This document shows positions 10,097-15,121 of a DNA stretch of 25,286 nucleotides, piece after piece; the stretch's first letter is position 1, and the number at the start of each line of letters is the position of its first letter. A program made the translations under genes and the position numbers. The DNA lies in the IMG/VR virus record IMGVR_UViG_2529293142_000022. The stretch is one strand, 5' to 3'. A model generated the notes under the pieces. It had not been told where the DNA came from and did no database searches. It worked only from the letters and a program-made list of their open reading frames with translations. Source of the DNA: a virus. Lineage: Duplodnaviria; Heunggongvirae; Uroviricota; Caudoviricetes.

Positions 10097-11459
10097 AGAT
10101 TGTAGATGAGTTTATTCTCCTGAAAAAGCAGAAAAGCCAGCTTTTGAGCCTGTTTAGGATTCTGTGTAAATGCCTTTTCTCAGAAGTGACCGTCCAGGCG
10201 GTCACCGAACTCGATAATAAAGCGGCTCATTGCCATTCGCCAGTCCTTCAACGGCATCGTCCATTTCTGGGACGCAGACTGGATTGCCAGCCACACCACT
10301 TTTTTCACCGAGTCGTCTGTCGGGAACACTTTACGCTTTTGATCGCATGGCGGATCACGCTGTTTAGCGACTCGATGGCATTCGTCGTATAGATCACTTT
10401 GCGGATGTCCGTTGGATAAGCGAAGAACGTGGCAAGATTCGGCCAGTTAGCCTGCCAGCTTCTGCTTATCTGAGGATAGCGACTGTCCCACGCCGCAGCG
10501 AACGCTTCCAGTGCCTGCTGACCTGCCTCTTCCGTGGGAGCCTGATAAATCGCTTTCAGGTCGCGAGTGACGGCTTTGTAGTCCTTCCATGACACGAAGC
10601 GCAGGCTGTTGCGCACCATATGCACGATGCATAACTGGATGCGGGCCTTCGGATATACTGTGTTGATGGCATCCGGGAAGCCTTTCAGGCCATCCACACA
10701 GGCGATGAGGATATCGTTCAGACCGCGGTTTTTCAGTTCAGTCAGCACATTGAGCCAGAACTTCGCCCCTTCATTTTCGGCCAGCCACATACCCAGCAGT
10801 TCTTTCTGACCTTCGATATTGATGCCCAGTGCCAGGAACACCGATTTGTTGATGACGCGGCTGTCCTGCCGAACTTTCAGGACGATACAGTCAAGATAAA
10901 CAATGGGGTAAACAGCATCCAGTGGTCTGTTTTGCCATTCTACAACCTGCTCCATCACGGCATCGGTGACCTTTGATATCAGTGCCGGTGAAACATCTGC
11001 GTCATACAGTTCTTTGAACGCAGTAGCTATCTCACGGGTGGTCATCCCTTTGGCATACAACGAGAGGATCTGGTTATCCATCCCGGTAATACGGGTCTGA
11101 TTTTTCTTACCAGTTGTGGTTCGAAGGTACCGTCACGATCGCGCGGAGTACGCAGTTCCAGTGGGCCGTCGCCTGTGATAACGGTCTTTGTGGAATAACC
11201 GTTGCGGGAGTTAGCTCCTGGTCTGGACTGATTTTTCTCATACCCAAGATGGTGTGTCAGTCTCAGCATTGAGAGCGGCTTCAACGCTGAGCTTTTTCAG
11301 CAGCCGATCAAACTGACTGAGGTCTTCAGGGGTTTTGAGGTTTTTGGCCAGTTCGTTAGCCAGAGCCTGTAACTGTTTTTCGTCCATAAATTAACCTTCA
11401 TTTGATGCTGGATTGAACATATCAAAATCAGGCAATTACACAAATCTATGTACAGGCTC
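10097..11459 (-). mobile_element. IS256-family (Mutator-type) insertion sequence, decayed; boundaries approximate
   Basis: Transposase remnant spanning 10180..11387; weak terminal similarity (tgtacatagatttgtgtaattgcc versus tgtagatgagtttattctcc); no clear target duplication. Confidence 0.55.
10180..11387 (-). pseudogene. IS256-family transposase with at least three frameshifts
   Basis: Fragments MDEKQLQALANELAKNL.. (11238..11387), ..LTHHLGYEKNQ..NSRNGYSTKTV.. (11042..11284), MDNQILSLYAKGMTTREI... (10305..11081) and ..KVFPTDDSVKKVVWLAIQSASQKWTMPLKDW.. to the stop at 10180; two shifts are 1-bp deletions in A-runs. Confidence 0.75.
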
Positions 11460-11574
11460 TCTGGCCGGTTCGGATTCGTACCTCGCAGAGGTCTTTCCTC
11501 GTTACCAGTGCCGTCACTATGACGGTTAAACAGATGACGATCAGGGCGATTAACATCGCCTTTTGCTGCTTCAT
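11446..11574 (-). pseudogene. hokD: hokD (relF) toxin gene, 3' truncated: 38 native codons then RACT-stop
   Basis: MKQQKAMLIALIVICLTVIVTALVTRKDLCEVRIRTGQ matches Hok-family HokD as recalled, then diverges exactly where the IS256-like sequence begins (about 11459/11460). Confidence 0.65.
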
Positions 11575-11645
11575 AGCCTGCTTCTCCTGTCAACGCAAAG
11601 CAGAAGTGTCACCTTCGGTGCGAAACAGAGATGTCATGCTTTGGT

Positions 11646-11933
11646 TCAGAGAATGCGTTTGACCGCCTCGCTATATACTTCCGAGCGTTCTCTTTTCCCA
11701 ACAGAAATCACGAAAACGACAACTTTCTCGTCTATAACCTGGTATACAAGGCGATAGCCTGAAGACCGGAGCTTAATCTTGTAACAATCAGGCATACCAC
11801 GGAGCTTGTTTGCTTCAATCCGGGGTGACTCAAGTACTTCAACCAGCTTCTTTTTCAACTGTTCACGTACCGTCGAGCCCAGCTTTCGCCATTCCTTTAG
11901 TGCCCGCTCGTCAAAATCCAGAAAATACGCCAT
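11646..11933 (-). CDS. relE: RelE mRNA interferase toxin (95 aa)
   Basis: MAYFLDFDERALKEWRKLGSTVREQLKKKL...YRLVYQVIDEKVVVFVISVGKRERSEVY; 1-nt overlap with relB. Confidence 0.95.
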   Translation of the reverse strand: MAYFLDFDERALKEWRKLGSTVREQLKKKLVEVLESPRIEANKLRGMPDCYKIKLRSSGYRLVYQVIDEKVVVFVISVGKRERSEVYSEAVKRIL

Positions 11934-12172
11934 CAGAGTTCATCCAGCGTCACACGTACTGGCTTAGGATTACGAAGCCGTTCTTTCACTATCTCCACAA
12001 GTTCAGCATCTTCATCACTCAGGAGTGTCTGTTTGAACGGCAAGCGTTCATTGTCAGCGATATACTCGAGCATGAGACGAAGCGCTTCAGAAGGAGTTAC
12101 ACCCATTTTTTCAAGCGCGGCGTAAGAACGCGCTTTAAGTTCATCGTCAATACGCAGGTTAATGCTACCCAT
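11933..12172 (-). CDS. relB: RelB antitoxin (79 aa)
   Basis: MGSINLRIDDELKARSYA..LEKMGVTPSEALRLMLEYIADNERLPFKQ...; ATG at 12170-12172. Confidence 0.95.
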   Translation of the reverse strand: MGSINLRIDDELKARSYAALEKMGVTPSEALRLMLEYIADNERLPFKQTLLSDEDAELVEIVKERLRNPKPVRVTLDEL

Positions 12173-12183
12173 GTCTTACACCT

Positions 12184-12209
12184 CTTGTAATTACAAATGT
12201 CATTACAAG
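12184..12209 (-). promoter_or_regulatory. relBE operator/promoter (relO-like repeats)
   Basis: cttgtaattacaaatgtcattacaag: two overlapping TTGTAAT(T/G)ACA-type repeats 12-37 nt upstream of the relB start. Confidence 0.55.
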
Positions 12210-12502
12210 TATCGCACTACAACATGCTTAGGGCAAGTCACGAAGGAAGTCAGAAAGTAGTCGTAAGAACGGTGATCACTGTCCGCTTTGTGCCAGGAGC
12301 AGCCATTGCTAAGTCCATCCTGTATTGTGCAGGTCAGCTCGTTTTTAAAGAGTCCGGCCATCATCTTACTGGTACAGACACCATATACTTTGTGACGGTC
12401 AGGCTACATATGCACAACTCAACTTATTCATCTATTTTTTGCTTTAGCATGTCAGTATTGCTTTCTCGTCGGCGGGTGAGCGGTGACCTGACCTGTCGAT
12501 AA
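12197..12502 (+). CDS. YdfV-like hypothetical ORF (101 aa); doubtful coding status
   Basis: Track ORF in the K-12 ydfV position and of the same length, but it starts inside the relBE operator and has no recognisable domain. Confidence 0.25.
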   Translation: MSLQVSHYNMLRASHEGSQKVVVRTVITVRFVPGAAIAKSILYCAGQLVFKESGHHLTGTDTIYFVTVRLHMHNSTYSSIFCFSMSVLLSRRRVSGDLTCR

Positions 12503-12654
12503 AGGAACGTAACACGTTTTATGCAACACCCGCATGCGGCAGAAAATTATTGCCGAACGTTTACCCCTGTCAACAAGCTTTACTTTCTGAGGCGCGCCAG
12601 CCCGCGAGGAAAACAATCTGAACATCAAACAATTAATGACACAAGAAATACGAT

Positions 12655-12681
12655 TAAAGATTTTTTTGTGCATGCCGATAG
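12655..12681 (+). promoter_or_regulatory. Sigma-28 (FliA) class 3 flagellar promoter for flxA
   Basis: TAAAGATT-11 nt-GCCGATAG versus consensus TAAAGTTT-N11-GCCGATAA, 24 nt upstream of the flxA ATG. Confidence 0.6.
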
Positions 12682-12704
12682 TGCTTTTTTAAAAGGAGAA
12701 ATCT

Positions 12705-13037
12705 ATGTCTGTCACAATTCAGGGAAATACCTCAACCGTTATTTCAAACAACTCCGCCCCGGAAGGAACATCAGAAATAGCCAAAATCACAAGACAAATT
12801 CAGGTGCTGACTGAAAAGCTTGGGAAAATCTCATCGGAAGAGGGGATGACGACACAGCAGAAAAAAGAAATGGCTGCATTGGTACAGAAGCAAATTGAAA
12901 GCCTCTGGGCTCAACTGGAGCAGTTGTTAAGGCAGCAGGCAGAGAAAAAGAATGAAGACGCGACAGTTCAGCCTGATAAAAAAGAAGAGAAAAAAGACGA
13001 TACAAATACCGCTGGCACCATTGATATTTACGTCTAA
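12705..13037 (+). CDS. flxA: FlxA (FliA-regulated prophage protein), 110 aa
   Basis: MSVTIQGNTSTVISNNSAPEGTSEIAKITRQIQVLTEKLGK...; AAGGAG Shine-Dalgarno; sigma-28 promoter upstream. Confidence 0.9.
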   Translation: MSVTIQGNTSTVISNNSAPEGTSEIAKITRQIQVLTEKLGKISSEEGMTTQQKKEMAALVQKQIESLWAQLEQLLRQQAEKKNEDATVQPDKKEEKKDDTNTAGTIDIYV

Positions 13038-13051
13038 GTGACAGCCGTATT

Positions 13052-13074
13052 GTGGCCCTCATCGGGCCACTTTT
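13052..13074 (+). terminator. Rho-independent terminator after flxA
   Basis: Hairpin gtggccc-tcatc-gggccac followed by tttt, 15 nt after the flxA stop. Confidence 0.6.
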
Positions 13075-13439
13075 CGCCATCAGCCTTTTCTTTAAAGACA
13101 TATTATCTTTGTATCATTTCTGATAGTTAACATTACAAGATATAAGTAATGGACGCACTCCCAATTAGTCTATTTAAATCGCCACGAGTTTAACTGACAA
13201 CCCATGATCAATTATGAATTGCAACTATTTCTGTAGTCACTTTTGTGGGGACAGTCCACAAAACTGCCAACTTCCGCTTCTTGCTCTTAGCGGACATTAG
13301 CATAGGCTATTTACCATAACGCCTCATTACGCGCACCGCCCAGACTGACTCAGCGCGTTTCTGGCATATCCCCGGTAAAACAAGTAACAAACCACCCGAA
13401 AATGAACACCAGAAACGCGACTTAAGAATCTACCCTATG

Positions 13440-14830
13440 AATGGATATGCACTCAACCGAATCGATCTTGGTTTCAATCTTTTTTATCGGGATCAGGCTT
13501 CTTTTTAGGTAACTTCGGGGGCTTAACTTGCTGATGACTTTGCATTCGGCGCGTAAGCCAGGGATGGTCAGCTTTAGGTTTAACATAGTATTTTGAGCGT
13601 AAATCAATACGGGCATTATCCACTCGTTCATGGACACTCTTTTCATCATCCAGTGGTATAGGCTCCGGGCCATCAACATACTTTTCCCAGCCCAGCGCTT
13701 TCCCGTCATACAGAACGTTAATTTCACCGTCAAAGTTCTCGCATACAGTAACAACCGAATGCCTAAGTCGATATCCCCGGCCCTCACTGCGTACCTGAAA
13801 CGCACTGCTTTTGTACTGGAAAGTGAGATTTTTAGACAGAACGCGCTTCGCCTGTAGGCTGAAGATATAACCCAGTTCCTCTTCAGAATGGTGCACATCA
13901 AGATGAGCATTATCAGTAGTACGAGGCGACGTAGCGAACCGGTTGTTATAGGCTTCAATAAAGGTCGGCAACCATGCATTTGCTGTTTCAATATCACTGA
14001 TATTCTGAAGCCGCATTTCTTTGACCAGCCTGTCCTGTAGTGTCTGATTGGCGCGCTCTACCCGCCCTTTTGCCTGCGGGCTGTTGGCATGGATTGGCTC
14101 GATGCCCAGTGTCTTTATCGCACGAGTGAACTGGGTCAGCTCACCTTCCCGCTCTGGGTTATTTACCCTGAATATACTGTGTCTATCAGAGTAGAGAGCG
14201 AGCGGTACGCCATGATCATTAAGGTAACCCCGGAGGGTTTCCATGTAAGCCCGGGTTGTTTCAGCAGGCACAAAACGCAACGCCATCAACGCACTGGTGG
14301 CATCATCAATGAAAACGATCAGTGTACATCTGGGGCCTCGATTTTCAAACCAGTCATGAGGTGAGCCATCAATCTGGATCAGTTCACCGTAAGATGGTCG
14401 TCGCATGCGGCGTTGATATATACGGGCAATTTTACGACGGCGTTCACGCCATAACCCCTCTTCTATCATCCACTTTCTGAGAGTTTCAACGGATAAAGAT
14501 AAACCGTGTATCTCGCGCAATTTTTCGCACGCAAACGTAGGTCCAAAATCAGCGTAACGGCCTTTGAGGAGTGAAATTACTGTTGCTCTGAATTCAGTAG
14601 AAAAGGAATTATTAGGACGCTTTCCACGTCGGTGGGAAACCAGACCAGAAGGCCCTTCATTTCTATACCGTTGCACCAGACGTTTAACCTGCCGAATAGA
14701 AATGCCAATGCGTGCCGCAGCTTGTTCCTGAATAATCTGAAGTCGGTGGAGTTCCTTATGACTCATCGTAACAGTCTCTTTGATCATGAAAAATCCCCCA
14801 GAGAATTGTCTGGGGACATTTTAGAATGGT
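13440..14830 (-). mobile_element. IS element carrying an rve-type transposase (IS481/ISNCY-like); ends not determined
   Basis: Single long transposase ORF; I could not identify terminal inverted repeats or a target duplication, so the coordinates are only a bracket around the gene. Confidence 0.35.
13474..14787 (-). CDS. DDE transposase with N-terminal helix-turn-helix and rve integrase-core domain (437 aa)
   Basis: LIVFIDDATS, LALYSDRHSIF and SPQAKGRVERANQTLQDRL motifs (D, D, E); basic C-terminal tail. Confidence 0.85.
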   Translation of the reverse strand: MIKETVTMSHKELHRLQIIQEQAAARIGISIRQVKRLVQRYRNEGPSGLVSHRRGKRPNNSFSTEFRATVISLLKGRYADFGPTFACEKLREIHGLSLSVETLRKWMIEEGLWRERRRKIARIYQRRMRRPSYGELIQIDGSPHDWFENRGPRCTLIVFIDDATSALMALRFVPAETTRAYMETLRGYLNDHGVPLALYSDRHSIFRVNNPEREGELTQFTRAIKTLGIEPIHANSPQAKGRVERANQTLQDRLVKEMRLQNISDIETANAWLPTFIEAYNNRFATSPRTTDNAHLDVHHSEEELGYIFSLQAKRVLSKNLTFQYKSSAFQVRSEGRGYRLRHSVVTVCENFDGEINVLYDGKALGWEKYVDGPEPIPLDDEKSVHERVDNARIDLRSKYYVKPKADHPWLTRRMQSHQQVKPPKLPKKKPDPDKKD

Positions 14831-15121
14831 TCAAAGGGGACATTACAGCTTGGTGTTAACAATAGCCTGCTTCTCCGTGCCTTTCGGCACGTAAGAGGCT
14901 AACCTACATGTGTCTAGCATGAAATTGGCCTCAGATTAATGTTAAGCGTCTTGCAGGACGCGTAATGTTAACTGGGGCTTTTCTCTATCTGCCGTTGGTG
15001 TCCATGCCCGAGGCAGATAGCCTCAAGCACCCGCAGTCATTCTACTTAACTAAGATTTCCCCGCAAACCGTTTTTGTCCAGCACAGTAAATATCCAACTA
15101 AACCAATGGAGTTCGCTGTAT

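Follow-up and report, generated by a model that had tools for sequence, protein, structure and literature searches.

A hokD toxin gene truncated by a decayed IS1414 element next to an intact relBE pair in an Escherichia coli Qin-type cryptic prophage

In Escherichia coli K-12 MG1655 the genes relB, relE and hokD (relBEF; b1564-b1562) of the Qin prophage are followed downstream by rem (b1561), and the locus described here has the same gene order and orientation. Insertion sequences (ISs) on the 3' side of chromosomal hok genes are a classic finding in K-12: according to PMC3562002, which cites Pedersen and Gerdes 1999, IS186 is located just downstream of hokC/gef and disrupts the fold-back element, and as it lies downstream of the reading frame the peptide is intact. 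IS1414, a member of the IS256 family, carries the gene astA embedded within its transposase gene (PMC12585946), and the decayed state of this element is common, with 67 of the 270 prototype astA genes being located outside an intact IS1414 (PMC12585946). Here, we describe an allele in which a decayed IS1414 cuts the coding sequence of hokD, located in a stretch of viral DNA of 25,286 nucleotides, the whole of which is referred to as the window.

The relBE module and the truncated hokD gene

The window is collinear with K-12 MG1655 at 99.9% identity, spanning ydfT, ydfU, relE, relB, ydfV and flxA, and it is an E. coli Qin-type cryptic prophage. Two segments, 8682-10145 and 11460-13658, follow K-12 without rearrangement at 99.9% identity, and 475 bp of K-12 (positions 2186-2660 in the numbering of our K-12 reference locus, L012) are absent between them. 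To the left, window positions 8682-10145 align without gaps to L012 722-2185, in agreement with strain NCTC9112 (locus L002). To the right, the window from 11460 onward is identical to L012 from 2661 onward, and across 11460-12456, i.e. from codon 1 of hokD through relE and relB to the promoter/operator region, there are zero mismatches to MG1655. K-12 homology ends at 13658 and restarts at 18458, about 4.8 kb of the window being missing from K-12.

Both genes of the toxin-antitoxin pair are intact. relE (11646-11933, minus strand) encodes 95 residues identical to K-12 RelE and matches PF05016 at 2.2e-13, and relB (11933-12172, minus strand) encodes 79 residues identical to K-12 RelB and matches PF04221 at 1e-32. 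The 80 bp upstream of relB, which constitute the promoter/operator region (12173-12252, minus strand) and contain CTTGTAATGACATTTGTAATTACAAG, are identical to MG1655 as well. Palindromic TTGTAAT/ATTACAA repeats are located within these 80 bp, and we take 12173-12252 with its repeats to be the relBE operator. Neighbouring relB and relE genes with an autoregulated promoter/operator, as present here, are the features of a RelBE type II toxin-antitoxin module. relBE would probably still be a working toxin-antitoxin pair, and neither its proteins nor its promoter should be affected. An earlier reading of the window from its letters and open reading frames (the sequence-only reading) had called relB and relE intact with their operator, and the identity to K-12 bears this out.

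hokD, in contrast to its K-12 counterpart of 51 residues, is truncated to 42 codons (11446-11574, minus strand), of which the native part (11460-11574) provides 38 codons and 1 nt and IS sequence (11446-11459) the rest. The product, HokD', consists of MKQQKAMLIALIVICLTVIVTALVTRKDLCEVRIRTGQ followed by RACT and a stop codon; its residues 1-38 are identical to K-12 HokD. The junction codons are A|GA GCC TGT ACA TAG, i.e. codon 39 onward is read from the terminal inverted repeat of IS1414, and the RACT tail with its stop is encoded by the outer 14 nt of the right inverted repeat. Residues 39-51 of HokD (TEVAVFTAYEPEE) are replaced by RACT in the window. That the frame follows the Hok family for 38 codons and then breaks had already been stated in the sequence-only reading, and it proves exact to the codon. 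Moreover, full-length HokD homologues terminate in ...TEVAVFTAYEPEE or ...TEVTVFTAYESER rather than in ...RIRTGQRACT, an ending that would have pointed to a natural C-terminus.

The Pfam profile HOK_GEF (PF01848) matches residues 6-39 of HokD' with 61.7 bits (cut-off 22). Profile positions 1-34 of 42 are matched, which include the transmembrane helix at the N-terminus as well as the conserved LCE motif, and positions 35-42 are missing, i.e. HokD' lacks a complete C-terminal periplasmic segment with the conserved Tyr/Cys close to its end (family members having about 50 aa in total), whereas the transmembrane helix and the conserved Cys30 are retained. Between window positions 9900 and 12400 no match to sok (RF01794) was found at E-values up to 1, i.e. 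there is no cis-antisense Sok beside hokD; K-12 hokD is reportedly likewise without Sok RNA and mok leader. Elsewhere in the window, a full-length match to Rfam sok antitoxin (CssrC; RF01794, 104 bits vs. a gathering score of 59) is located at 14861-15032 on the minus strand, away from hokD and just upstream of the gene for an intact ISNCY-type transposase of 437 aa (13474-14787, minus strand), whose 3' end corresponds to the small K-12 gene ydfW; no Hok-like ORF was found near this match. DicF sRNA (20481-20532, plus strand) and two cspA-type thermoregulator leaders (1378-1763 and 4272-4664, both minus strand) are present as expected in Qin.

A full-length IS1414 in place of 475 bp

The place of the 475 bp of the reference locus is filled by IS1414 (10146-11459, transposase on the minus strand), which was identified by comparison with 5,426 complete E. 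coli genomes. Throughout its 1314 bp the element shares 98.0-99.4% identity with five intact copies (1315 bp) annotated on chromosomes and plasmids, and like these it begins with GAGCCTGT... and terminates in ...ACAGGCTC. The left terminal inverted repeat (10146-10175) pairs with the right one (11430-11459), the two arms of 30 nt being 73% complementary in a repeat search. The sequence-only reading had spoken of a decayed remnant of an IS256-type transposase with at least three frameshifts; the family is correct and the frameshifts are exactly three, but the IS is of full length, and a truncated remnant is rejected by the presence of both inverted repeats and all 1314 bp. The left boundary had been set at 10097, which has to be moved 49 bp to the right, as the left end of the IS is at 10146; positions 10112-10145 belong to rem and 10097-10111 lie beyond it, downstream of rem.

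The decay of the element consists of three indels of one base each: one T is missing after 10336 and another after 11106, and an extra G is present at 11260; these indels and three substitutions are absent from all five intact copies compared. The two closest intact copies (99.4% identity) encode intact 402-aa transposases, whereas in the window this protein is split into four pieces in three reading frames rather than encoded by a single ORF. Fragment 1 (11238-11387, minus strand) comprises residues 1-42 with an out-of-frame tail and is ended by the G insertion, and fragment 2 (11042-11284, minus strand; approximately residues 43-93) is ended by the T loss after 11106 (TTT to TT). Fragment 3 (10305-11081, minus strand), a 258-aa ORF with the catalytic core, matches PF00872 (Transposase_mut, Mutator-type DDE) at 4.1e-90 over profile positions 104-352 of 379 and is ended by the T loss after 10336 (TTTTT to TTTT); the transposase is thus a true IS gene of IS1414 and does not align to a non-IS gene. 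ORF and indel comparison assigns the C-terminal 49 residues to fragment 4 (10180-10329, minus strand) in the third reading frame, and this 49-aa product is recorded elsewhere only at unrelated IS1414 remnants beside IS1. In exact-product look-ups, ORFs specific for the frameshifts in the T-runs or spanning the left junction were absent elsewhere, and sequencing errors at the two homopolymers are therefore possible.

astA, coding for the heat-stable enterotoxin EAST1, is preserved as an intact ORF of 38 aa (10556-10672, minus strand; PF08090, Enterotoxin_HS1, at 1.5e-25 over positions 1-36 of 36). It is embedded in the transposase gene in a different frame and has 0 nucleotide differences to the five intact IS1414 copies. 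The gene shares its strand with relBE-hokD' and follows the stop of hokD' at a distance of about 770 nt.

As compared to K-12 and to NCTC9112, which is free of an IS at this site, one contiguous block of 475 bp is missing and IS1414 exactly fills the gap. From hokD, 41 nt are lost, which correspond to codons 39-51 with the stop; the spacer of 216 nt between hokD and rem is gone entirely, and rem (L012 2152-2403 in K-12) has lost 218 of its 252 nt. What remains of rem is its 3' end (10112-10145, minus strand), made up of 1 nt, ten final codons (KAGFSAFSGE) and the stop. In the reference, a single terminator-like hairpin follows hokD (NCTC9112, L002 3812-3795; AACCCGCTTCGGCGGGTT and then a T-rich run); it falls inside the spacer and hence inside the lost segment, and no terminator-like sites were found in the window between 9900 and 12400. 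Rfam Sok or hok-mRNA elements beside hokD were likewise not found in the window, and the 3' UTR of the reference hokD gave only a sub-threshold isrK-like match (25 bits, E-value 0.006; L002 3791-3872, minus strand). This match overlaps the region of the terminator-like hairpin and its segment is deleted from the window. The name IS1414, the structural completeness of the element, the loss of rem and of the hairpin, and the intact astA are points on which the sequence-only reading, although right about the locus, was silent.

Origin and occurrence of the hokD::IS1414 junction

The window IS1414 is flanked by CAGCTTTT and TCTGGCCG, i.e. both junctions are at the exact IS termini and there is no 8-bp target duplication. 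Clean 8-bp duplications are found at three intact IS1414 copies elsewhere, and those recorded for intact copies are GGCGAATT (strain 67-1), CGCTGGCA (NCTC9112), TAAAAATT (TUM9803) and GCTTTTAT (HSP425). Exact termini, the lack of a duplication and one contiguous missing block are the signature of an IS-mediated adjacent deletion, and it is the adjacent 475-bp deletion that accounts for the missing duplication. We therefore consider it very likely that IS1414 inserted, that an IS-mediated event then deleted the adjacent 475 bp, and that the element subsequently decayed in place. The sequence-only reading had proposed insertion plus deletion from the lack of a visible duplication, and the replacement of 475 bp by the IS relative to both K-12 MG1655 and NCTC9112 makes this the best account.

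In the proposed course of events an IS1414 copy would first have inserted within the rem-hokD segment of the Qin-type prophage. An IS-mediated event would then have removed the DNA from one IS end to a nearby point. Either the element transposed intramolecularly, or it recombined with another IS1414 copy close by and in the same orientation. This would leave one complete IS1414 with exact termini and no duplication, 475 bp of host DNA gone and hokD ending in RACT, and the IS would finally have decayed in place by the three one-base indels in the transposase gene. The structure is compatible with both deletion routes and with either junction as the original insertion site and does not distinguish between them. 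The reverse order, i.e. a deletion first and an insertion into the scar second, is rejected since it would leave an 8-bp duplication.

Other strains were considered as source of the allele. The nearest one is rem::IS1414 of E. coli HSP425 (NZ_CM136999.1) and NZ_OZ547038.1, which has the same orientation, resides in the same Qin-type prophage and lies 2 bp from the left junction of the window. However, unlike the window allele it has the 8-bp duplication GCTTTTAT, an intact transposase, and hokD as well as the 5' part of rem, and its IS1414 is another sequence variant, about 2% divergent from the window copy. Owing to the 2-bp offset and the divergence of the IS, the HSP425/OZ547038 insertions are independent and are rejected as the same event or as a precursor. 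Strain 67-1 is rejected as a precursor, too, as its IS1414 is located 133 bp to the left, with the duplication GGCGAATT. A direct precursor, i.e. an allele with the same site, a target duplication and intact hokD, was not found, HSP425/OZ547038 being the nearest allele. In other strains, several independent insertions of IS1414 lie close together in this part of Qin (HSP425, L006 10449-11763 and 13830-15144; L001 3314-4628; L002 5481-6795), the sites being 2 bp from the left junction of the window, 133 bp to the left, and just after flxA (HSP425 and NCTC9112). This clustering hints at a preferred target region or a mere tolerance of insertions.

Neither window junction was found in 5,426 complete E. 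coli genomes, of which 1,199 have the hokD-relE-relB stretch and 2,754 the rem-hokD 3' segment, and exact 32-mer scans of metagenome contigs and GTDB species representatives gave no match to either junction. The exact 42-aa HokD', on the other hand, is present on 14 draft contigs from several assemblies (including GCA_000225185.3, GCA_900016115.1, GCA_002133845.1, GCA_035967155.1 and GCA_035967725.1) and as an NCBI nr entry named 'Hok/Gef family protein', so the hokD::IS junction is real. The 90%-identity protein cluster that holds HokD' is represented by an unrelated 92-aa protein, encoded by a gene between ydfU and rem, which looks like an artefact of database clustering. A contig of one of the assemblies (GCA_000225185.3) is 100% identical to the window across 6,457 bp and has the extra G at 11260 as well, whereas a contig of another one (GCA_900016115.1) shares the hokD::IS junction but lacks this insertion; the comparison suggests that the IS1414 decay continued after the junction had formed, to be taken with caution as draft contigs end inside repeats. 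The left junction and the two T-run deletions are seen in the window alone.

A second IS insertion in the same prophage, a 2504-bp IS66-family element at 6178-8681 (ISEc22-like per the annotation of matching genomes), interrupts the antiterminator gene ydfT close to its 5' end and is flanked by a clean target duplication of 8 bp, TGGTAAGG (6170-6177 and 8682-8689). In GCA_035967725.1, whose hokD is truncated in the same way, flxA is abutted at window position 12731 by one end of the IS66-family element (L011 1-185), pointing to more IS rearrangement within the lineage.

The truncation of hokD might have been selected, the gain in fitness resulting from the loss of a toxic third gene or of rem, or from a rewiring of relBE by which its stress-induced transcripts drive IS1414 and astA. 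ISs at or just after several K-12 hok loci disrupt a 3' regulatory element, as stated in PMC3562002 citing Pedersen and Gerdes 1999, the allele persists across several assemblies, and the hairpin after hokD is gone, with astA following on the same strand. Nevertheless, selection is very unlikely: the allele occurs in 0 of 5,426 complete genomes although 1,199 of them have hokD-relE-relB, the prophage bears other IS insertions such as the IS66-family element in ydfT, as neutral decay predicts, and Rho would readily terminate the transposase RNA upstream of astA, as this RNA is frameshifted and not translated. The whole event would rather be neutral decay of a cryptic prophage.

Alternatively, two direct IS1414 copies in rem and hokD, flanking the 475-bp segment, might have been collapsed into one during assembly. 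Assemblies typically collapse at IS copies, each of the 14 draft contigs that bear the hokD' junction stops inside the IS, and, as mentioned, the left junction is private to the window. Yet the window crosses the entire IS1414, whose unique private changes make the copy distinguishable from others, the element belongs to one variant type throughout and shows no sign of a chimera, and two insertions 475 bp apart would still be needed, which makes a collapse highly improbable. Finally, that HokD' is a natural short Hok variant with an IS inserted downstream of an already short gene has nothing but the open 42-codon frame in its favour and is rejected with near certainty, as the last four codons and the stop are IS1414 terminal-repeat sequence, HokD of K-12 and others continues with TEVAVFTAYEPEE or TEVTVFTAYESER, and the match to the Pfam profile stops at position 34 of 42.

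Consequences and comparison with known systems

HokD' is probably non-toxic because it has lost the C-terminal periplasmic segment including Tyr47, and from this analysis we regard an inactive protein as the likely outcome. Alignment of both proteins shows that Tyr47 of HokD corresponds to Tyr48 of Hok from plasmid R1, where, according to PMC9841398, the exchange Y48N abolishes toxicity, as does a C-terminal tag or a C-terminal extension by 17 aa (PMC9841398). Similarly, PMC8509063 cites Poulsen 1991 for Gef being non-toxic when its C-terminal region is swapped for PhoA. HokC-PhoA fusions, however, are reported to be still toxic (PMC8509063), so that a native C-terminus may not be needed in every member of the Hok family. 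Moreover, the near-C-terminal Tyr codon is reportedly edited to Cys at the RNA level in hokC, hokD and hokE, and the disulfide arising from Tyr-to-Cys editing is essential for the toxicity of HokB (bioRxiv 10.1101/2025.08.07.668861).

With no terminator-like hairpin left, relB-relE-hokD' transcripts probably run on into IS1414 in sense direction. It is very unlikely, though, that the junction created a new transcription unit with stress-inducible astA by relBE read-through and, separately, a membrane-active HokD' of altered activity. If the former were true, degradation of RelB under stress would de-repress the relBE promoter and result in expression of astA (EAST1); if the latter were true, the hard-wired, IS-encoded Cys41 would stand in for the edited Tyr47 codon of hokD.

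In terms of annotation, the 42-aa product is to be regarded as a truncated hokD pseudogene rather than a 'Hok/Gef family protein', and the rem remnant should be flagged. The strain scores astA-positive although its IS1414 cannot move on its own. Beyond annotation the importance is small, i.e. a cryptic prophage decays around an untouched relBE and one more chromosomal hok gene is damaged by an IS. The locus represents ordinary IS-driven prophage decay, all of its parts being known genes and the allele already being in public databases, and both IS damage at hok loci and decayed IS1414 with intact astA have been documented before.

As compared to relBEF of K-12, the window has IS1414 for 475 bp, a HokD of 42 instead of 51 aa, and lacks the hairpin and most of rem. 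As in the IS-disrupted hok loci of K-12, an IS borders a chromosomal hok gene on its 3' side and destroys 3' sequences; in contrast to hokC/gef, however, the break falls within the reading frame and comes with a deletion of 475 bp, and the IS belongs to the IS256 rather than the IS4 or IS3 family. Finally, there is no essential difference to the decayed IS1414 elements described earlier (PMC12585946), in which the transposase is mutated and the embedded astA is kept, just like in the window, whose copy retains both ends and has three one-base indels as its defects.
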